This document shows positions 1,015-10,244 of a DNA stretch of 10,244 nucleotides, one piece after another; position 1 is the first letter of the stretch, and each line of letters begins with the position of its first letter. The DNA is from a virus (taxonomy: Duplodnaviria; Heunggongvirae; Uroviricota; Caudoviricetes). A program made the position numbers and the translations under genes. Under the pieces are notes generated by a model, which did not search any database, was not told the origin of the DNA, and saw only the letters and a list, made by a program, of their open reading frames with translations. Where the stretch lies: IMG/VR virus record IMGVR_UViG_3300012281_000038. The stretch is one strand, 5' to 3'.

Positions 1015-3727
1015 TCATTCTTCAGATGAGTTGTAATCTCCTGGCTGGTAATTGAGTACATAAACGTTTATTTGTCGTCCCTGAATACGTGGTGATTTTC
1101 TTTGGTATCCACGACCGCTGTTTGGTGGGGTTAGCATCCCGGCTTTTTTCAACACTTCAGCAAACTGTTTTGCGTTGAAACCACATGCGATCTCCTTTTC
1201 AAATGTGGCCGGGAATGTGTAGAAAATCATTGGGCTTTCGTCATGTTCTCCACGCTGACGGTATCCGGCTAAATCTTTGATGGGCAAATCTGCCGGGCTG
1301 TATGGAAATGGTGCAAAACGGCTAAGCCCATAGGCATTAAGAAATGCCTCCGTTTGTTCAATAATCTGCTGATGTTCTTTGTTACCTGTGCCGAACTCGC
1401 GCAACCATGCGTTATAGCTGTGCTGTATCGCATCACGGCATGTCTGAGCATCCCAGCCTGTTACAACCTCGCCTAACAGCAATGCGGCCTCCAGAATGGC
1501 AAATCGCGCGGCTACACGGTGAACCTGCTCACCATAATCGGATGGGATCAGACTTCTCCATCTGCTTTCGCAGTCACGAACAGTTTTAATTGCCTGTTGC
1601 TGGTGGTCTGCCAGCCATTTAATCCACTCACGCCCGGCTGCGCCGTGGTGATGCTGGTAAGCGTCTTTCAGTGCGTCTGCGTGCTGTTTTCCGTTCTGGT
1701 AATCGTGAAAGCGTACTGCTTTACTCAACGGAATATTCAGCAGTCGCACCAGTTGCCCGGCTTTGGTTTTTCGCCCGGAAGTAGCGATAAATGTTTCTAA
1801 ATCCATTTCTCCGGTGCTGATTGCCACTGTACGCCAGCGTTTTAGATCCCGGTTTCCACCATCTTTAGCGCCTTGCAGTTTCCCTACGCCGTTAAATAAC
1901 GCATAGGCAGACTGTGAAACACTGACAGGATCAGCGCCCTGACCAACTTCATCAAGCGGCATTAGTCCGTCATTGTGGGCGGCGGCTTCATTTGCCAGCC
2001 CCAGCGCGGTTCCGTACCACGTCAGCCGCAGTAAATCAGGGTTGCCGTATAAGCTGCTCGCCACGTTTGCCGTGGTGGTCTTACCTGCGCTCGACTGCTC
2101 ATAGAAATGAATGCCGAACCCGTCAGCGCCCACCAGCCTAATCAATGGCGCTGCCAGTGCTGCGCCGATCCCGGTCATCATTGAATAGTTACCAAAGGCC
2201 AGACGCGCCACGTTATCACGCCAGCTTTTCGCGCTCCCTGAGACGGTATATCCGGCTGCGGCTGAGCTTCTCCCGCTGAACAGCACAGGATTTTCAGGTG
2301 TTCCGATGATTTCCCCATCAGGCATGATGTACGCTCCGCATTGCCAGCCAGTGGCATGAGCAACACGCCACAATTCACGAGAGCCACTGCGTTGTAGCCA
2401 GTCTGCCAGTATTGCTCTGAGGCTGCTTTTGGTCGTGACATTTACCCCACCAGCTTTAAGTGTGCGCCATCCTTCACGTTCACCAATATCAGCCAGTGGA
2501 ATGGCAGCGGTTGTCGGCGTTTCAGAACCAAACGACAGCCAGCGAAGAATGAGATACTGGTCTTTATCGTCTCTGCCAGTACCGATAACGCTTAACGGAG
2601 AACATAACCAGCTTTCGTTATTGATGATTTCTCCACTCTGGCTGTCAGCTCTCGGAGATACCCAATAAATGCCATCCTCGCGGCTTTCTATTCTTGGTTT
2701 CAGTGGGTCGGTATCCATAACCTTAAAATCGCTTCCCTCAATGGTTTGTGGCTCCTGTTTCACGCCATTACCCTGTGGTTGGTACATTGACTTATTGAAC
2801 GCTTCTGTGGCGCATTTAATGCCGTGTTTTTGGTGGTAATCATTCCAGTCTGCTTTGTGATCTGTCGGGGGTAATGCCACCCATCCAGAAACAGATAAAG
2901 CTGCTTTTTCTGCTGCTATTCTCCCCGTGTTTTGTCTTCCTTCGCGGTGGTCGTTATCCGCAGCAATGATGATTTGTGCTGAAGGAAATTTATCCTGCAG
3001 TACCTGGGCGACATATAACAGGTTCCCGGCATCAATCGCCGCCACTGTCAGCGCCTCTGGACGCATTAAATGGGCAGATAATGCCGTTGCCAGCCCTTCT
3101 GCGATTAAGATGCTCTGTGTTGTTTCTGGTGNNNNNNNNNNCACCATGTGAGGTAATAGTCTGTGCTGCTGTTACTGCGCCGGATTTATCCACCAGCGCC
3201 AGCAACAGAGATCCATCGGGCAACACGGGGAATGTAAAATCACCTACCCCTTTCGCAACCAGATAATCAGATTTGCCGTTTACAGCCTTTCTGCGCATGT
3301 CATCAAACTGACGGGAAAACGTATCCCGTCTTTGTTGTTCGTCCTTCTCTTCCCTTTTCAGGCGCTCCTGTTCGCGTCGCTGGCGCTCGGTTTCCAGTTG
3401 TTCCCGTTTCTGGCTGGTGGCTTCTGGTGTTTCCGTTGTCCGGTAATCAATACCCAGAACATCAGCGGCAAGAAGCGCCGCCTCTGTTGTGTCGCAGTTA
3501 TTTACGCGTTTAATTAAATCCAGCCCATCACCAGCGCCGCACTGATTACAGATGAAGCTACCGCGCCCGTTGTCATCGAACCGGAATCGATCTTTGCCCC
3601 CACATGCAGGGCAGGGAGCATGACGGCGCGGAGAGTCAGGGACATTTATGTTCAGGCAGCCCAGCACATGAGGCCAGTTGTTTTCAGACGCACTGATAAC
3701 CTGACGGATAAGATCAATGTTTCGCAT
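1015..3727 (-). CDS. DNA primase-helicase: N-terminal zinc-ribbon, TOPRIM domain, C-terminal P-loop NTPase (D5/DUF5906-like); reading frame broken at the 10-N run 3132-3141
   Basis: Track ORFs 3032-3730 and 1015-3147 are two halves of one gene. The N-terminal half has CPACGG...CNQCG (zinc ribbon). The second half has the TOPRIM signature (IAEGLATALS ... IIIAADNDHREGRQ) and a Walker-A-like SSAGKTT. The likely start is ATG 3727-3725 (GTG at 3730 is the track start). The two halves are in different frames across the N run. Confidence 0.85.
3132..3141. other. run of 10 N (masked or unresolved bases) inside the primase gene
   Basis: Literal n characters. Flanking reading frames differ by one, so the true length is probably not 10, or the gene is frameshifted. 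Confidence 0.95.
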
Positions 3728-4085
3728 CACCGTACCCCACGTGGTCTATAGCGTTTGCGATATGGCTAACCAGCATCTGCCACTTGGTTATTCCGTAATC
3801 AGTCAGCATGCCATCATTGTTTAGCCACATATCAAATTCAGCGGTTGTCGCAAGTTTCCACTTATCGCCGTGGACAGTCCTCATTGCTGGGTACATGAAT
3901 GCGCAAATCAGATCACAAACATCTGACGGCTTCAGAGATGTAGTAATGGTGCGTCCCTCTGGCGTCTGAATTGCCATTTTCTCTTCACCAGTAGAATGAA
4001 GGTTATGAATCCACACAGCGCCAGCAATCTTTGCCACCTGCTCTCCGATTGCGGAGCTAAGCGCCATTTCTGCATTTTCACGCAT
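3714..4085 (-). CDS. hypothetical protein (123 aa)
   Basis: ATG 4085-4083 with GGGAGG five nt upstream; stop TGA 3716-3714, overlapping the primase start by 14 nt. No family recognised. Confidence 0.6.
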   Translation of the reverse strand: MRENAEMALSSAIGEQVAKIAGAVWIHNLHSTGEEKMAIQTPEGRTITTSLKPSDVCDLICAFMYPAMRTVHGDKWKLATTAEFDMWLNNDGMLTDYGITKWQMLVSHIANAIDHVGYGDAKH

Positions 4086-4346
4086 GAGAACCTCCCGCTA
4101 CAGTTGCGCCCATGTCATTAACCATGCTTTGCCATATCTCACGCCCGACGTCAGTCAATCCGTCCTTAGTGACGCAACGATCAAGAAGCTCTATCCCCAC
4201 GGTTTCCCACTGCGGGTAGAACACTTTCATGGCTGCCANNNNNNNNNNNNNNNNNNNNNNNNNNNNNNNNNNNNNNNNNNNNNNNNNNNNAGTGCCGACG
4301 CATACTTATTTGCCAGCGCATTCAGTCGGAAATTTTTAGTAATCAT
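4078..4346 (-). CDS. hypothetical small protein interrupted by a 52-N run (extent and frame uncertain)
   Basis: ATG 4346-4344 (MITKNFRLNALANKYASA...) with GGATGGAG upstream. Beyond the N run the open frame ...MKVFYPQWETVGIELLDRCVTKDGLTDVGREIWQSMVNDMGATVAGGSHA ends at TGA 4080-4078, overlapping the ATG of the 123-aa gene (ATGCGTGA). Frames on the two sides of the gap disagree if the N count is literal. Confidence 0.3.
4239..4290. other. run of 52 N (masked or unresolved bases)
   Basis: Literal n characters. Confidence 0.95.
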
Positions 4347-5207: not shown

Positions 5208-5432
5208 TCAGAGAGGTAACTTTTGTAGCCAGCTAGTGATTACTGTCGCCTGTTCCCCTCCCACCGATGGAAGAATCTCATTCATCACATGAACCAGACC
5301 TGTGCGCGCTCTGGTAAGCCGTTCAGTCGTGCGATCTGCAAGAGTGAATGTGTCTGGATATGGCTCTTCACGGCTCAGCAATGATTCAATTTCCAGCTCA
5401 CACGGATGACGATAAATTAAGTTGATATTCAT
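5208..5432 (-). CDS. hypothetical small protein (74 aa)
   Basis: ATG 5432-5430 overlaps the stop of the upstream gene (ATGA). Stop TGA 5210-5208. Confidence 0.55.
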   Translation of the reverse strand: MNINLIYRHPCELEIESLLSREEPYPDTFTLADRTTERLTRARTGLVHVMNEILPSVGGEQATVITSWLQKLPL

Positions 5433-5623
5433 TTTTCACCCCCAAGAATTACCAGCTCTGCACGAGCATCGTTAACCAAAGATGAGCACGCTTTAATCGC
5501 ATCCACGACATCAGCAGCGTCCATTTCTTCAGCCGAAAGACTGACAGCAACCAAGACAGCCGCTGCTTGCTCGATTAATTGAAGTGCGGACGTAAGTCGA
5601 GGGGCATTAATTGAGTTATTCAT
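5429..5623 (-). CDS. hypothetical small protein (64 aa, MNNSINAPRLTSALQLIEQ...)
   Basis: Preferred start ATG 5623-5621 preceded by GGGGG, overlapping the stop of the upstream ORF (ATGAATAA). The longer track ORF starting at 5680 overlaps the upstream frame. Confidence 0.5.
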   Translation of the reverse strand: MNNSINAPRLTSALQLIEQAAAVLVAVSLSAEEMDAADVVDAIKACSSLVNDARAELVILGGEK

Positions 5624-6683
5624 TGGTTGCCCCCGTTTTTCCTGGCATTTCGCCACCTTCCAGCAGGAAATGAACGTCACGAACGGCGAGATCCAATATC
5701 GCGAGTAACGCCTTCAGTTTTTCGTCTCGTGAGGGAGAGTTGCTCACCAGAATGTCATTAATCACTTCTGTCAGTGTGATGATCTGGCTTGTGCGTTCGA
5801 GGGGATCCATATGCACATCGTAGGTTTTAATCATGTGCCACCTCCATGCGGATACGACCAGCAAAAAAGCAGACGTGATCGCGCACCAGAGAACGGCGAG
5901 CATCGCGTTCAGACTCGGCAGCAATATGATGAATTTTGGCGGTAATTGTCGGGCAATCGCGGCGAACTGCGGCGATAATCCAGATAAATTGCGGTTTTTG
6001 GGTAGGGGTAGTAGCCAGCATGTGGCAGCCTCCTTGTACTGGGAATTCTTCCCACCACCGGAGCTGCGAAACTCGCTGGTGGTGGACTGAACAGAGTTCG
6101 CAGTACCGGCGTACAAGGAAACCGGCCAGCCTTTCGGCTGCCCTGTCCAGCCCACCATAATTTTGCAAGCGACGCGGATTATAACCACATCACTGAAAAA
6201 AGTGTGAGTCTGGCTAACGGCACAAAAAAAGACGCTCGGCGCGTCATGTGTCGCCTCGTACATTTCCGGGCTGCGAAACCCGGCACCCGTTTTATGAGGT
6301 GCCTTATAACCATAAACCGTGTTGCCGCATAACGACAAGCTCTTTTTTATGGACTCCGAAAACTCACTATTGGAAGCACCAGATGCACAATACATCGCGC
6401 TCATTTCGTTAACGTCGCGCGTGTGGACGAAGGTTTTTGTGGAGCCACTACGCGAGCAGAGAAAGCCATCTACGACCAGAAATTCTCTGGCGCAGCCGCT
6501 GACCCTCTCAACGATAACACCATCGACCGTAATTTCTGACATAGTTAAGGCATCCGCTCCTACCACCAGCAAATGATAAACTTTGCTTGCATCTGCTGTA
6601 TTAATGCCTGATTTTGCTGTCATATTGCTGGATTTTTGCCACATACCAGCCAGTGAAAATATCTTCTTCTGGGCGGTTAGCAT
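5616..6683 (-). CDS. 355-aa open frame of doubtful integrity: good start signals, but the middle contains hairpins and T-runs and may be non-coding or a structured RNA; an internal start would give a 72-aa C-terminal product (5616-5834)
   Basis: ATG 6683-6681 with GGAGG seven nt upstream and the same ATGNNNTAA overlap with the preceding gene as elsewhere in the operon. The frame stays open for 355 codons. The central part is low-complexity and carries a terminator-like hairpin with T-run (6224-6245) and two hairpins sharing the 10-mer GCTGCGAAAC. An internal GGAGG + ATG (5834-5832) precedes a well-formed C-terminal segment MIKTYDVHMDPLERTSQ... Confidence 0.35.
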   Translation of the reverse strand: MLTAQKKIFSLAGMWQKSSNMTAKSGINTADASKVYHLLVVGADALTMSEITVDGVIVERVSGCAREFLVVDGFLCSRSGSTKTFVHTRDVNEMSAMYCASGASNSEFSESIKKSLSLCGNTVYGYKAPHKTGAGFRSPEMYEATHDAPSVFFCAVSQTHTFFSDVVIIRVACKIMVGWTGQPKGWPVSLYAGTANSVQSTTSEFRSSGGGKNSQYKEAATCWLLPLPKNRNLSGLSPQFAAIARQLPPKFIILLPSLNAMLAVLWCAITSAFLLVVSAWRWHMIKTYDVHMDPLERTSQIITLTEVINDILVSNSPSRDEKLKALLAILDLAVRDVHFLLEGGEMPGKTGATNE

Positions 6684-6859
6684 TTGTTAACCTCCGCGAA
6701 CTCCTTCATGAAACGTGCCAGCGGTTGTACGCATGGCGATTGATACCCGTCGCGATAAAACGTCACTCGGTTGTGAGACACGCTTTCGACAGTAACGAGT
6801 GCTCCGTGGGCATCTTTGTAGCGTTTTTGAGGTTGTGGTGTTCCTGTCGGCTTAAACAT
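6677..6859 (-). CDS. hypothetical small protein (60 aa)
   Basis: ATG 6859-6857 with GGAGG eight nt upstream, overlapping the stop of the antirepressor gene (ATGTTTAA). Stop TAA 6679-6677. Confidence 0.5.
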   Translation of the reverse strand: MFKPTGTPQPQKRYKDAHGALVTVESVSHNRVTFYRDGYQSPCVQPLARFMKEFAEVNKC

Positions 6860-7700
6860 GGACCGCCTCCAGACGCTTAGCGAGCCAGCGTTGCGACAGG
6901 CGGGTGAGTTCTCCTTTGCGCTGCTCATATTCCATGCCCATATCAATTAACGTGATATTGGTGCTTTCGAGATATGAGAGGTGCTCAAGCTGTTCTGCGT
7001 TCATATGGTCGCGAGGTTCGCCAGAATAGCCATTTATCCGCGCCCACTGCTTAGCAGTTAGCCCACCAAGAACGATACGAGAAATCATATTGCTCTCGTT
7101 TGTGTAGTGGTGTTGCTGCGTCGTTTTACCCATCTCGGCACGGGCCATATTCAGCGCATCGCACATTGGCTTAAAGTTGTTTGCGGCACTGATACGGGCT
7201 TTTAGCTGGCGACGATAGCGGGCGGCGATTTCAGGCACGCTACGCTGTAATTCTTCCTCGCACTGGATGAAATAACGGCGGATAGCGCGACCCTGATCAT
7301 TGCGTTCGATCATTGCCAGTTCTTTCGCCATTCCGACACTTAACAGATAGTCTTTGCCGGGTCTGCCAGACTGCTTAATCTTGCTGTAAGCCGCGCCATT
7401 CGGGCTTTTCCCCAAATTTGGGGAAATTGTTTTATGGACTGAGTAATCGCGCCCAATGGTGAAGTCATACTCAGAGATGCGNNNNNNNNNNNNNNNNNNN
7501 NNNNNNNNNNNNNAGAAGTCTTTTCCCACGCCCAACGCTTTGTGTAACGCTTTTGCGCTAACAATATTGGTTTCACGCCCACCGATATGACCAGGAATAA
7601 CCGGGACAATTGCGGCAAATTCATTACCGTTAATTGTGCCCAGAAAGGCGTTCGGATGAGGGGCGGCCTCAGAAATTAATCTGCTTTTTTCGATGTTCAT
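6852..7700 (-). CDS. phage antirepressor-like protein (AntA N-terminal domain + KilA-C/ANT C-terminal domain)
   Basis: ATG 7700-7698 with GGAGA upstream. Motifs VSAKALHKALGVGKDF ... GRPGKDYLLSVGMAKELAMIERNDQGRAIRRYFIQCEEEL match the AntA/KilAC antirepressor pattern. A 32-N run (7482-7513) falls inside without disturbing the frame. Confidence 0.75.
   Translation of the reverse strand: MNIEKSRLISEAAPHPNAFLGTINGNEFAAIVPVIPGHIGGRETNIVSAKALHKALGVGKDFXXXXXXXXXXXRISEYDFTIGRDYSVHKTISPNLGKSPNGAAYSKIKQSGRPGKDYLLSVGMAKELAMIERNDQGRAIRRYFIQCEEELQRSVPEIAARYRRQLKARISAANNFKPMCDALNMARAEMGKTTQQHHYTNESNMISRIVLGGLTAKQWARINGYSGEPRDHMNAEQLEHLSYLESTNITLIDMGMEYEQRKGELTRLSQRWLAKRLEAVHV
7482..7513. other. run of 32 N (masked or unresolved bases) inside the antirepressor gene
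   Basis: Literal n characters. Confidence 0.95.
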
Positions 7701-7712
7701 TTTCAGTCTCCG

Positions 7713-8144
7713 TTAGGCGGCGTTAAACGCGTCCGGGTAGAGTTTCAGAATGTCGGCAATTTCCTGCTGAGAAAGTCCGTTGTGATCATTTATGTTCGCA
7801 AGATGGTTAACATGAGTGATCACTTTCAGAACATCACCACGGCAGGAGAAACGGTAGCGAAGGTGTGCTCCGATACCATCAGGATTCTTTTCGTCGATAC
7901 GCTCCAGAGTGATCCCAAGCTGGCGTTCTAACTCTGTTGCATAGTTACGACCAGAAGACAGACGGCAGTAGCGAAGAATGTCGTTTTCTGTCCATCCCTC
8001 TATACCAGTACGCAGCATATAGACTCGGGCGCGATGCTTTTTCGGTGTGCGCTTTGGTGCTTGAAGGGATTTTGTCAGGGGCGTAACATCAGATACGCGA
8101 ATATCTGAATTAGCCGCCTGTAATGGGCGGTTTTTCTTTTCCAT
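7713..8144 (-). CDS. hypothetical protein (143 aa), basic N-terminus, possible C-terminal helix-turn-helix
   Basis: ATG 8144-8142 overlaps the alpA-like stop (TGATG). Stop TAA 7715-7713. The C-terminal GLSQQEIADILKL resembles an HTH recognition segment. No family confidently recognised. Confidence 0.55.
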   Translation of the reverse strand: MEKKNRPLQAANSDIRVSDVTPLTKSLQAPKRTPKKHRARVYMLRTGIEGWTENDILRYCRLSSGRNYATELERQLGITLERIDEKNPDGIGAHLRYRFSCRGDVLKVITHVNHLANINDHNGLSQQEIADILKLYPDAFNAA

Positions 8145-8347
8145 CAGGCCACCTTCCCGCGGCGTTCTGCCAGCCAGTTGTGAATCTCAACCGCATCAAA
8201 CGCAGTTATTTTTTCTCCCAGCTTTACCGGACGTGGTAGTGAACCGTTTCTTACTTTACGGTCGATGGTGGATACACTAACGCCCAGCAATTCAGCCAAG
8301 CGGAAGCGTCTGATATAGCCTTTTGTAGGAATAGTGTCAGTGTTCAT
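8144..8347 (-). CDS. alpA: AlpA-family phage transcriptional regulator / excisionase-like HTH protein (67 aa)
   Basis: Translation MNTDTIPTKGYIRRFRLAELLGVSVSTIDRKVRNGSLPRPVKLGEKITAFDAVEIHNWLAERRG fits the AlpA (Phage_AlpA) HTH pattern. ATG 8347-8345. Position between integrase and replication genes is typical. Confidence 0.8.
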   Translation of the reverse strand: MNTDTIPTKGYIRRFRLAELLGVSVSTIDRKVRNGSLPRPVKLGEKITAFDAVEIHNWLAERRGKVA

Positions 8348-8420
8348 GCTTCCCGTAACCTCTTAACGATAGTTGTTGCTTCGTTACGAGAAAACTAACT
8401 GTATAGATATACAATGAAAA

Positions 8421-8442
8421 GGTACTGTATTTTTGCAGTACC
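8421..8442 (-). terminator. hairpin GGTACTG-N8-CAGTACC followed by TTTTCATT on the minus strand; possible terminator of the int-cargo transcript, or an operator
   Basis: Perfect 7-bp inverted repeat (8421-8427 / 8436-8442) starting 12 nt after the stop of the 316-aa gene, with a T-rich tail on the minus strand. Confidence 0.4.
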
Positions 8443-8453
8443 TCTATAGTAAG

Positions 8454-9404
8454 TTAACTATCTACTTTGCCATTTGCCGCAGCTCGTAGATGTTTAAGAA
8501 TTACATCTTCATTAGTTATCATAAGTGGTGGAACTTCGCCTAAATGCCGAACAAGGCAGTCACGCCACTTTTCCGGGCTTATTTCTTTCCTTTCTCCTCT
8601 GCATTCATCTGGATACTTACTAAGTATATAAATTGCAGATTTTAATAGTTTCTCCCTATTGACAGCGTGTCGTTCGGCACGTTTATTGACTTTCAACGTG
8701 TTTATATCATTGGATAACTTGTTTGCAGAAGGCTTGTGCGTGGGTTTATCATAAATATATCTTCCTCCATTGATAAGGAGATTGAATTCATAATCAGTTA
8801 TATACATTTTGTTCCGGCTTACTTCATACCATCCGTCAATATAAAAAGTTCCGATTTCATAATCCGGCGATTTATAAAAATCGTCACATCTTGGCGGCGT
8901 CAATTCGCATACTGAAATCTCCCAATCATCCCATTCTGATAGCTCTCGCTCATCGTTATCTATGAATGCAGGAGGAATTGCTAATAGACCGCACCATCTT
9001 TCTATCTCTCTTTTATCCTTTCCGACATTGTATCGCTCTATAACTGAAAAATGCTCTGATTTGTATGAAAATCTAATAAAATACAGGTGGTTATCGTCAT
9101 TTTTGTCATCAAGGGATGATAATCCATATGATTCAGGATCATCTATATTATCGCTCAGTCCAAGAAGGTAGTTCTCATTTGCCACTTTCTCATCTATATC
9201 GAAAAAGCTATCTGTTTCAACTTTAAGTAATTCTGGCTCGGCATTTTCATCTTTTGGGTAATGGTAAAACAATTCAATAGGTGGAATCTTTGTGCATATT
9301 TCTAAAACCCCAATTGCTGCATAGTGTATTAAATCGGATACTTCACATCCGGCCAGTTTGGCTGCTTTATCCAAAGAATAATATTTATGCGCAGGTAATT
9401 TCAT
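8454..9404 (-). CDS. hypothetical protein (316 aa), low-GC cargo gene; possible N-terminal HTH, acidic central region; function unknown
   Basis: ATG 9404-9402 with strong RBS GGAGGAGAG seven nt upstream, 18 nt after the integrase stop. GC is about 33-38% in sampled stretches against about 50-53% for neighbouring genes. The N-terminal YSLDKAAKLAGCEVSDLIHYAAIGVL resembles an excisionase/MerR-type HTH. No catalytic motif recognised. Confidence 0.7.
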   Translation of the reverse strand: MKLPAHKYYSLDKAAKLAGCEVSDLIHYAAIGVLEICTKIPPIELFYHYPKDENAEPELLKVETDSFFDIDEKVANENYLLGLSDNIDDPESYGLSSLDDKNDDNHLYFIRFSYKSEHFSVIERYNVGKDKREIERWCGLLAIPPAFIDNDERELSEWDDWEISVCELTPPRCDDFYKSPDYEIGTFYIDGWYEVSRNKMYITDYEFNLLINGGRYIYDKPTHKPSANKLSNDINTLKVNKRAERHAVNREKLLKSAIYILSKYPDECRGERKEISPEKWRDCLVRHLGEVPPLMITNEDVILKHLRAAANGKVDS

Positions 9405-9422: not shown

Positions 9423-10244
9423 TCATGCTCTAATTGGTGTCACGTTGTAGTCTTTTCCGCTTTCCAGTGCCACCAGCAGATCAGCCCACTGTGCCAGTGC
9501 TGCTTTACGCTCATCAAAATACTGATGGCGGTTATAAATCCCCTCTATGCCCTTAATGCGATGATTGAGGCATCGTTCCGCCACGACAGGATCAACACCC
9601 AACGCTGCTAAATGAGTACGTGCGGTGCGTCGGAAGTCGTGAATCGTGAAATTAGGCACATCCGGCATTTCGGCGCGAACCTTAGCCAGTGCTACGGGTA
9701 AAGTGCTTTCCTGAATATGTGGGATCATTCTGTTTTGCATTTTCCTGGCTGGAAGCACCCATGCGCTATTACATGAAAAGGTGTGAAGCTCTCTCAACCA
9801 TTCAACGGCTGGGGAAGGTAGAGGTATATCAATAGGGTCTCCGTTTTTGCTGCGTTCTTCCGGCAAATGCCATACCGCACCATCTAAATCAAACTCTTCC
9901 CATCGTGCGGCGCATAACTCCATCTTACGAACGCATAGTGCCAGCAATAGCTTAAATGTCAGTTCGTTCTGGCGGCTGAATCCTTTTGCGGTGCGCATAG
10001 CCTCGAATAGCCTGATAAGCTCATCGCGAGTTAGCCAACGGTCGCGGGAAACCTCTTTACCACCAGCATCAGATACTTCAAACGCTGAACAAGGGTTTAT
10101 CTCCAGAGCGTGGCGTTTTATCCCATAGTCAAAGATACGGCGTGTCCAGCGTAATACATCTGTTGCTATCGTTGGTGCTCCTCGGTCAACGATACCTTTC
10201 AACATGTCGTCAATGTGGCGTGGCTTAACGTCCTCTACCTTCAT
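9423..10244 (-). CDS. int: tyrosine recombinase / phage integrase, C-terminal catalytic portion (N-terminus lies beyond the right edge)
   Basis: Catalytic-domain motifs: R in LCVRKMELCAARWEE, HDFRRTARTHLAALG (H-x-x-R), NHRIKGIEGIYNRHQY (catalytic Tyr region). Stop TGA 9425-9423. The ATG at the window edge is probably internal. Confidence 0.9.
   Translation of the reverse strand: MKVEDVKPRHIDDMLKGIVDRGAPTIATDVLRWTRRIFDYGIKRHALEINPCSAFEVSDAGGKEVSRDRWLTRDELIRLFEAMRTAKGFSRQNELTFKLLLALCVRKMELCAARWEEFDLDGAVWHLPEERSKNGDPIDIPLPSPAVEWLRELHTFSCNSAWVLPARKMQNRMIPHIQESTLPVALAKVRAEMPDVPNFTIHDFRRTARTHLAALGVDPVVAERCLNHRIKGIEGIYNRHQYFDERKAALAQWADLLVALESGKDYNVTPIRA

Follow-up and report, generated by a model that had tools for sequence, protein, structure and literature searches.

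C4/CI-type antisense RNA elements within an eta-like "Ash family" reading frame of a P4-like Escherichia coli satellite

Does a long open reading frame that is filled with hairpins and repeats encode a protein, or does it carry regulatory RNA? This question is raised by a 355-codon open reading frame (ORF) on the minus strand of the virus record IMGVR_UViG_3300012281_000038 (IMG/VR; Caudoviricetes), whose DNA of 10,244 nucleotides was analysed as a whole and is referred to here as the window. A sequence-only reading had proposed that the middle of this ORF is an RNA-based module rather than a protein, analogous to the CI RNA of P4 with its seqA and seqC sites. The window is a P4-like satellite, an island of the phage-inducible chromosomal island (PICI) type, of E. 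coli, and the region studied here is that of its immunity and early-operon control. We consider it likely that the locus is a P4-type switch between immunity and early-operon expression, built like PLE-seqA-CI-seqC-kil/eta, in which translation of an eta-like ORF serves as the override. The elements of the region are:

6677-6698, minus strand: start region of the long ORF, with GGAGG at 6691-6695, 7 nt upstream of the ATG at 6681-6683
5616-6683, minus strand: long ORF, 355 codons
6345-6680, minus strand: 5' portion of the long ORF that precedes the internal promoter, not conserved, with 50 variable sites per 336 nt
6420-6536, plus strand: phage gp3 DNA-packaging gene, present as a relic in antisense to the long ORF
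6309-6338, minus strand: predicted internal promoter (equivalent of PLE), -35 TTGTCG at 6333-6338, 18-nt spacer, -10 TATGGT at 6309-6314
6225-6302, minus strand: IsrK/seqA-type leader RNA, Rfam RF01394 (isrK), 69 bits against a gathering score of 50 in a search of the whole window
6254-6261, minus strand: b1, GUACGAGG, second target of the C4 loop, in the leader
6163-6224, minus strand: spacer of variable length separating leader and C4, with 62 nt in the window, 24-25 nt in the loci L006, L007 and L009, and 107 nt in P4
6075-6162, minus strand: C4/CI-type antisense RNA of about 88 nt, Rfam RF01695, 81.1 bits against a gathering score of 45
6111-6119, minus strand: b' loop of C4, UCCUUGUAC
6094-6103, minus strand: a' single strand of C4, CUGCGAACUC
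6052-6085, minus strand: a2 hairpin, CCACCACC (6052-6059) with GGTGGTGG (6078-6085), 10-mer at 6063-6072 in the loop
6031-6039, minus strand: b2, GUACAAGGA, overlapping the icd Shine-Dalgarno sequence GGAGG at 6029-6033
5827-6021, minus strand: Icd/Kil-like gene, 64 amino acids, NCBIfam NF033153, 71.7 bits against a cut-off of 25
5616-5834, minus strand: orf72, with its ATG overlapping the icd stop (ATGATTAA) and a GGAGG of its own

The match to RF01695 spans the full model (positions 1-87 of 87), and the matching RNA adopts the consensus fold of the family, a long basal helix with two apical hairpins, with a minimum free energy of -45.8 kcal/mol and a z-score of -4.9. Across 22 relatives, 98.8% of the cells in this structure are paired and 17 of the 27 pairs show compensatory changes; none of 500 shuffles reached this pairing score, and slid controls gave 33-52%. 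The leader RNA lies upstream of C4, as the IsrK/seqA family requires, and the same layout was found in 18 of 19 Icd-anchored loci. It forms three hairpins, the last being an intrinsic terminator; hairpin 1 is followed by hairpin 2 with the a1 target in its loop, by b1 and by the terminator, and the consensus fold of the relatives shows compensatory changes here as well. The terminator-type hairpin that had been noted before is confirmed as this leader terminator. It consists of the stem-loop GACGC-N5-GCGTC at 6231-6245 and a minus-strand U-run, which appears as an A-run at 6224-6230 on the plus strand, and a promoter and terminator scan returned 6224-6245 as the sole terminator-like site between 5500 and 7000. 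Both models also match the CI and seqA region of phage P4, and the proposed analogy to that system is borne out by the Rfam search, which returns C4 together with isrK. RNAs of the C4/CI type are cut from a longer precursor by RNase P, in P4 also by PNPase, to give the stable RNA that confers immunity. A second hairpin-like run, suspected at 6189-6202, did not hold up: it is a weak 4-bp stem in the spacer that is deleted in the close relatives L006 and L007.

The 10-mer GCTGCGAAAC occurs exactly at 6063-6072 and at 6270-6279. The latter copy is a1, in the loop of leader hairpin 2 (CCGGG...CCCGG, 6266-6283), and a single-stranded CUGCGAAC of C4 is complementary to the 10-mer in both the a1 and the a2 loop. 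The observation of two hairpins with a shared 10-mer thus stands, the 10-mers being the targets a1 and a2 of C4. The match between a' and a2 extends over 13 nt, and b' and b2 are 100% complementary over 9 nt. Taken alone, the 10-mer repeat is unremarkable, with 16 of 200 shuffles giving at least 3 matches at no more than 1 mismatch; the 10-mer and the hairpins fall within two Rfam matches well over the gathering score, and the hairpins are backed by covariation in relatives. For the a2 hairpin, 97.3% of the cells are paired, with compensatory changes at 6 of 11 pairs and 28-63% pairing in slid controls. Because its 5' arm is also the 3' strand of the C4 basal helix, the a2 hairpin and the C4 fold are mutually exclusive. 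The c4-a1b1 motif (RF03163) stayed below its gathering score of 46.7, with 22.5 bits at 6263-6315. The complementarity of a1/b1 is present despite this low score, which is probably caused by the unusual a1 sequence.

Target specificities were compared in 25 loci, comprising close E. coli variants, P4, and loci of other genera found via the Icd protein. These loci hold 17 distinct a'/b' combinations, and both target pairs fit the C4 of their own locus in every case; b2 varies among the variants and always fits its own b'. Mean duplex energies were -34 and -36 kcal/mol for cognate against -23 and -27 kcal/mol for non-cognate pairs, and in 15 of 17 and 13 of 17 cases no target paired better than the cognate one. 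We regard this three-way co-variation of a'/b' with both target pairs as the strongest evidence for the proposed antisense mechanism. Between near-identical islands, 125 of 280 positions vary in the RNA module compared with 1 of 187 in icd, and in this sequence comparison the module shows itself to be a hypervariable specificity cassette. The 17 co-varying antisense specificities form a natural series that is useful for studies of heteroimmunity among satellites.

The internal promoter was recognised by eye from the sequence and by its conservation. It lies directly upstream of the isrK 5' end, and the predicted transcript start is the G at 6302 (TTGTCG-N18-TATGGT-N6-G). The arrangement GGCTTGCC-N18-TATGGT is kept in 23 of the 25 loci, including P4 with equal geometry, and among close variants the promoter region has 1 variable site per 42 nt. 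The spacer at 6163-6224 holds GGTTATAAT, a TATAAT-like, -10-like motif about 15 nt upstream of the C4 match; similar motifs occur in other loci with a 62-nt spacer and not in those with a 24-nt spacer. It may be a second promoter, comparable to P51b in P1.

On the downstream side, icd is the first gene after C4. Its ribosome-binding site bears b2, and its reading frame is not that of the long ORF. The Icd-like protein resembles the Kil C-terminus of P4 eta, and the RefSeq annotation agrees on Icd. The following orf72 shares both frame and stop codon with the long ORF and is conserved as a protein between genera; no family match was found for it in Pfam, NCBIfam or PHROG. Its sequence and conservation argue that it is an independent gene, coupled to the icd stop codon. 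The earlier alternative, in which a leader and a 72-amino-acid gene are fused in the long ORF, came close, as the last 72 codons are such a gene with its own Shine-Dalgarno sequence. In full, the pieces of the ORF are a non-conserved leader, the translated RNA module (Pfam 'Ash'), an alternative frame of icd, and orf72.

These elements can be combined into a model of the switch. In the repressed state, the constitutive internal promoter (6309-6338) would start a transcript at about 6302, and most transcripts would go no further than the leader terminator (6224-6245), which leaves a short RNA of the IsrK/seqA type. Transcripts reading through would give rise to the ~88-nt C4/CI RNA (6075-6162), whose b' and a' would bind two target pairs, b1/a1 of the leader and the nearby b2/a2 on the downstream side. 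As b2 covers the icd/kil ribosome-binding site, translation of Icd would be blocked, and the untranslated RNA would be terminated, in P4 by Rho, leaving the genes from orf72 through the primase silent. Upon induction, transcripts would arrive from the upstream alpA - orf143 - AntA/B - DUF4222 operon and bring ribosomes into the 355-codon ORF via the overlap of its ATG with the DUF4222 stop. Translation over the leader, C4, a2/b2 and the icd region would then prevent both pairing and termination, and the replication genes would be turned on despite immunity. For RNA processing, Rho-dependent termination and anti-termination by translation, we infer the behaviour of the locus from work on P4 and P1.

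Several points weigh against this model. The internal promoter escaped the generic promoter scan, and the promoter, the RNA ends, the processing and the termination by Rho all enter the model as deductions. Unlike in P4, the long ORF does not share the frame of icd/kil and runs on to the stop of orf72, so that the P4 model is applied to a variant arrangement. The codon-position test described below draws on 7 sequences that are closely related and probably recombinant, with about 50 sites. Finally, IsrK of Gifsy-1 activates downstream translation (PMC4825925), which makes the sign of the leader's effect here uncertain. In line with this last point, the module might act as in Gifsy-1, mainly as an induction switch and not as a repressor. 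The leader is a full-length isrK match with 69 bits, trans-activation of orf45-anrP and alternative structures are shown in the IsrK paper (PMC4825925), and an alternative fold exists here too, with the a2 hairpin competing with the C4 basal helix. However, the genes downstream are icd/kil and replication genes as in P4, with no antirepressor among them, and b2 sits directly on the icd Shine-Dalgarno sequence with perfect pairing to the C4 loop, which is the repressive geometry of P1 and P4. We therefore think it unlikely that induction is the main function of the module. The Gifsy-1 and P4 models are compatible with each other, since the leader could titrate C4.

The override of the P4-type switch would reside in the long ORF, whose good start had been noted from the sequence and is confirmed. 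GGAGG lies 7 nt before the ATG (6683), which overlaps the TAA stop of the DUF4222 gene (6677-6679) as ATGCTAA, an arrangement typical of translational coupling; an overlap of start and upstream stop (ATGA, ATGCTAA or ATGNNTAA) is seen in 17 of 26 loci. The ORF begins 381 nt upstream of the isrK 5' end. A run of 283 codons would be free of stops with a probability of 1.7e-6; in the other two frames there are 9 and 11 stops. Of the 26 loci, 19 were retrieved by Icd similarity only, from 19 genome records of about a dozen genera. In all 26, the frame is open for 187-619 codons in constant phase relative to C4, starts 84-486 nt upstream of the isrK 5' end and crosses the whole icd region. Four further modules in lambdoid and P4-like prophages are likewise open, so that all 30 modules examined from satellites and prophages follow this pattern. 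Between leader and C4, the distances are 98, 101, 125, 128, 140, 146 and 185 nt, every one 2 mod 3, and the indels among close variants measure 39 and 3 nt. A natural control for the long ORF is the P1-like plasmid L030 (NZ_CP182160.1, 1818-2028), which has isrK and C4 matches at a spacing of 123 nt (0 mod 3) and a frame of just 45 codons. An ORF open by chance is ruled out by the stop-codon statistics together with this control.

The 3' end of the frame differs between loci. The long ORF ends at the icd stop in 17 of the 26 loci, and it is out of the icd frame here and in L004, L006, L007, L010, L012, L019, L020, L022 and L024. In these loci, icd is crossed in an alternative frame without stop codons. 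The ORF then ends 172-211 nt past the icd stop, here after 211 nt at the orf72 stop, except in L022, where it stops 4 nt beyond the icd stop. The offset from the icd/kil frame arises from a distance of 53 nt, and not 54 or 57 nt, between the C4 end and the icd ATG. A lambdoid prophage (L032, NZ_CP123321.1) has two tandem isrK-C4 modules, at 1801-1989 and 2457-2645, each within a long open frame of its own, annotated as 'ash family protein' and then 'Rha family regulatory protein'.

The open frame and its coupled start could also belong to a conventional protein, a regulator of the 'Ash family' or the Bro network that depends on its amino-acid sequence and for which the RNAs would be incidental. 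The ORF matches Pfam Phage_ASH (PF10554) with 99.7 bits against a cut-off of 26 over residues 124-232 (window 5988-6314) as well as PHROG 6928, a 'transcriptional repressor' family that is the same as Phage_ASH. RefSeq names the whole ORF 'ash family protein' in some genomes and lists a pseudogene fragment plus Icd in others, and in some prophages the frame runs on into a Rha domain. Nevertheless, the Phage_ASH match runs exactly from the promoter and isrK across C4 as far as a2b2, and the 'cI gene product' ORF of P4 matches Phage_ASH over the CI RNA. Codon periodicity is missing: among the close variants, variable sites are spread over the three codon positions as 18/13/19 in the first 112 codons and as 45/41/39 in the RNA part with the Ash domain, whereas the AntA/B gene, used as a control, has the expected third-position excess (4/9/18, p = 0.008). 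Purifying selection on codons was thus not seen in the Phage_ASH stretch, and changes in the C4 stems are compensatory. Between genera, no alignment is possible for the first ~110 residues, and the first 123 codons gave no match in Pfam, NCBIfam or PHROG. They include, in antisense, the relic of the gp3 gene, with 59% identity over 39 amino acids (E 4e-10, tblastn, plus-strand frame 3), of which 107 nt match intact packaging genes of other E. coli prophages at 82-85% DNA identity. A plus-strand ORF at 6319-6576 was considered as the gp3 remnant and rejected, as BLASTP against gp3 was negative and the relic sits in another plus-strand frame. With a gp3 relic inside it, the ORF leader seems to have been assembled from scrap DNA. 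The C-terminal partner, too, varies by locus, being the icd frame, orf72 or Rha. Protein-level conservation with synonymous variation over the 355 codons, which would speak against an RNA module, was hence not found; codon positions are flat and the N-terminal part is unconserved. Altogether, a conventional protein appears improbable.

That the long ORF is a meaningless by-product of functional RNAs, icd and orf72, in which a conserved RNA sequence happens to lack stops, agrees with the missing protein-type constraint and with the annotation pipeline PGAP calling just a pseudogene fragment and Icd in some genomes, but it is hardly credible given a frame open for 84-486 nt of non-conserved sequence upstream of the RNAs and across frame-preserving variable spacers, a probability of about 2e-6 for the absence of stops, the same RNAs without the ORF in the P1-like plasmid, and the conserved overlap of ORF start and upstream stop.

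The initial claim of RNA rather than protein is consequently half right. The RNAs are real and protein-type constraint is absent, but the frame is kept open in all satellite and prophage relatives examined, with spacers that preserve it. The best reading seems to be that both apply: the RNAs are embedded in an eta-type ORF for which, by analogy with P4, being translated is what seems to matter. Whether this extends to the thousands of enterobacterial 'Ash family' ORFs, such that their frames are open only to let ribosomes from the upstream operon cross and switch off IsrK-C4 RNAs, with the amino-acid sequence irrelevant, we judge to be an even call. If so, PF10554 and PHROG 6928 would be families shaped by RNA conservation, and the 2 mod 3 spacing, together with the lack of the ORF in P1-type elements, would be a signature of selection for translation alone. 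For annotation, the 355-amino-acid 'ash family protein' of RefSeq conceals an internal promoter, two regulatory RNAs and a terminator, along with icd and orf72 as the actual short genes, and the labels 'Ash' and 'transcriptional repressor' trace to an obsolete protein reading of P4 cI. The P4 record (L003, NC_001609) still labels 8168-8584, over the CI RNA, as a 137-amino-acid 'cI gene product / transcriptional repressor', a label that a PHROG family has since taken over, as many phage annotations probably have too. In L030, PGAP calls a 39-amino-acid 'ash family protein' atop c4.

The region is common: 5400-7000 has DNA matches in 1174 of 5426 complete E. coli genomes, 479 of which cover at least 80% of the query; the copy in E. 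coli NC101 is 98.8% identical. Every gene of the window lies on the minus strand, and the neighbours of the locus are:

9423-10244, minus strand: integrase
8454-9404, minus strand: 316-amino-acid ORF flanked by integrase and AlpA, with a low GC content (0.37 compared with ~0.48)
8144-8347, minus strand: AlpA
7713-8144, minus strand: orf143
6852-7700, minus strand: AntA/B-type protein
6677-6946, minus strand: DUF4222 protein
1015-3730, minus strand: Toprim/DUF927 primase, reached after several small ORFs

The 316-amino-acid ORF has no Pfam or PADLOC match, and the relative L001 has no annotated gene at that position; it is possibly an accessory or cargo gene. For orf83, no Pfam, NCBIfam or PHROG family was found, the one Pfam match, TY-Chap1, being below threshold (16.1 bits, cut-off 27), and PADLOC returned nothing for three other ORFs. 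Rfam matches to MIR2606, HrrF, DdR11 and petD elsewhere in the window scored far under their gathering scores and were disregarded. Runs of N (X in the translations), for example at ~3135-3146, 4237-4290 and 7483-7515, break the genes of the primase and the AntA/B protein as well as an ORF at ~4230-4290; as relatives have unbroken genes at these sites, the runs appear to reflect masking and no biological feature. A short way downstream of the primase gene, TGAACCAAC is repeated four times in perfect tandem, and two copies of the inverse unit TGTTGGTTCAG lie about 45 nt off (954-989 and 890-910); these repeats are candidate replication-origin iterons.

Among the known systems, Salmonella Gifsy-1 with its IsrK - STnc1160 - orf45 - anrP region (RF01394; PMC4825925) shares with this locus alternative structures and the short terminated leader and would share a read-through isoform and a processed stable downstream RNA, and its authors call IsrK a structural homologue of P4 seqA (PMC4825925). 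IsrK also binds Hfq and acts in trans on the read-through transcript (PMC4825925). Gifsy-1 differs in its controlled genes, which are orf45 and an antirepressor gene, and activation in trans has been demonstrated for its IsrK. The immI region of P1/P7 (RF01695, RF03163) is alike in its RNA family, in the logic of two target pairs, in having b2 on the icd ribosome-binding site and in an Icd-like first gene. In the P1-like plasmid, by contrast, icd is followed by a KilAC antirepressor and not by replication genes, and no long ORF covers the module. The layout of the window, int - alpA - Bro zone - primase, corresponds to that of Gram-negative or helper-embedded PICIs, for which it has been reported that the Rfam C4 and isrK models match the 'Bro zone' genes (Phage_ASH) of enterobacterial islands, a finding that was read via P4 eta (PMC10111431). 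That work treats Phage_ASH as a protein domain of the Bro network, whereas our data indicate that the domain here is the translation of an RNA module with no protein-type constraint.

In P4, transcripts that start at an internal promoter are soon terminated, and CI is processed from them (PMC10111431, citing Forti et al. 1999). Kil is translated on read-through only, full-length Eta is made only from the upstream late promoter, and termination, which is Rho-dependent and specific to immunity, is prevented by translation of Eta (PMC10111431). Late transcripts can thereby escape immunity. In agreement with this account of eta, the P4 ORF at 8168-8812 (NC_001609) starts at the end of the AlpA-like orf88, crosses PLE, seqA and CI and ends as Kil, with three consecutive Met (MMM) at codons 16-18 and a Kil-like C-terminus. 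The present locus resembles P4 in its upstream AlpA-type gene, in a long ORF begun before a constitutive internal promoter, in the isrK/seqA leader with terminator followed by C4/CI, in a second target pair on the Shine-Dalgarno sequence of an Icd/Kil-like gene, in the replication genes that follow and end in a primase, and in promoter geometry and ORF phase relative to C4. Like eta, the long ORF is coupled to the upstream gene, starts before the internal promoter and spans the equivalents of seqA, CI and seqC. It differs in standing out of the icd/kil frame, in using the stop of the next gene and in its 355 codons compared with 197-199 in P4. Further differences are the orf143, AntA/B and DUF4222 genes and the ORF leader between alpA and the module, the leader-to-C4 spacing of 140 nt compared with 185 nt in P4, and the a'/b' specificities. 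As C4/isrK in PICIs and the account of P4 eta have already been reported (PMC10111431), the locus is a member of a described kind, and a clear example of an existing system rather than a new one. It leaves the known P4 model unchanged, extends it to a common E. coli island, and offers an ORF that appears to be selected for being translated and not for its encoded product.

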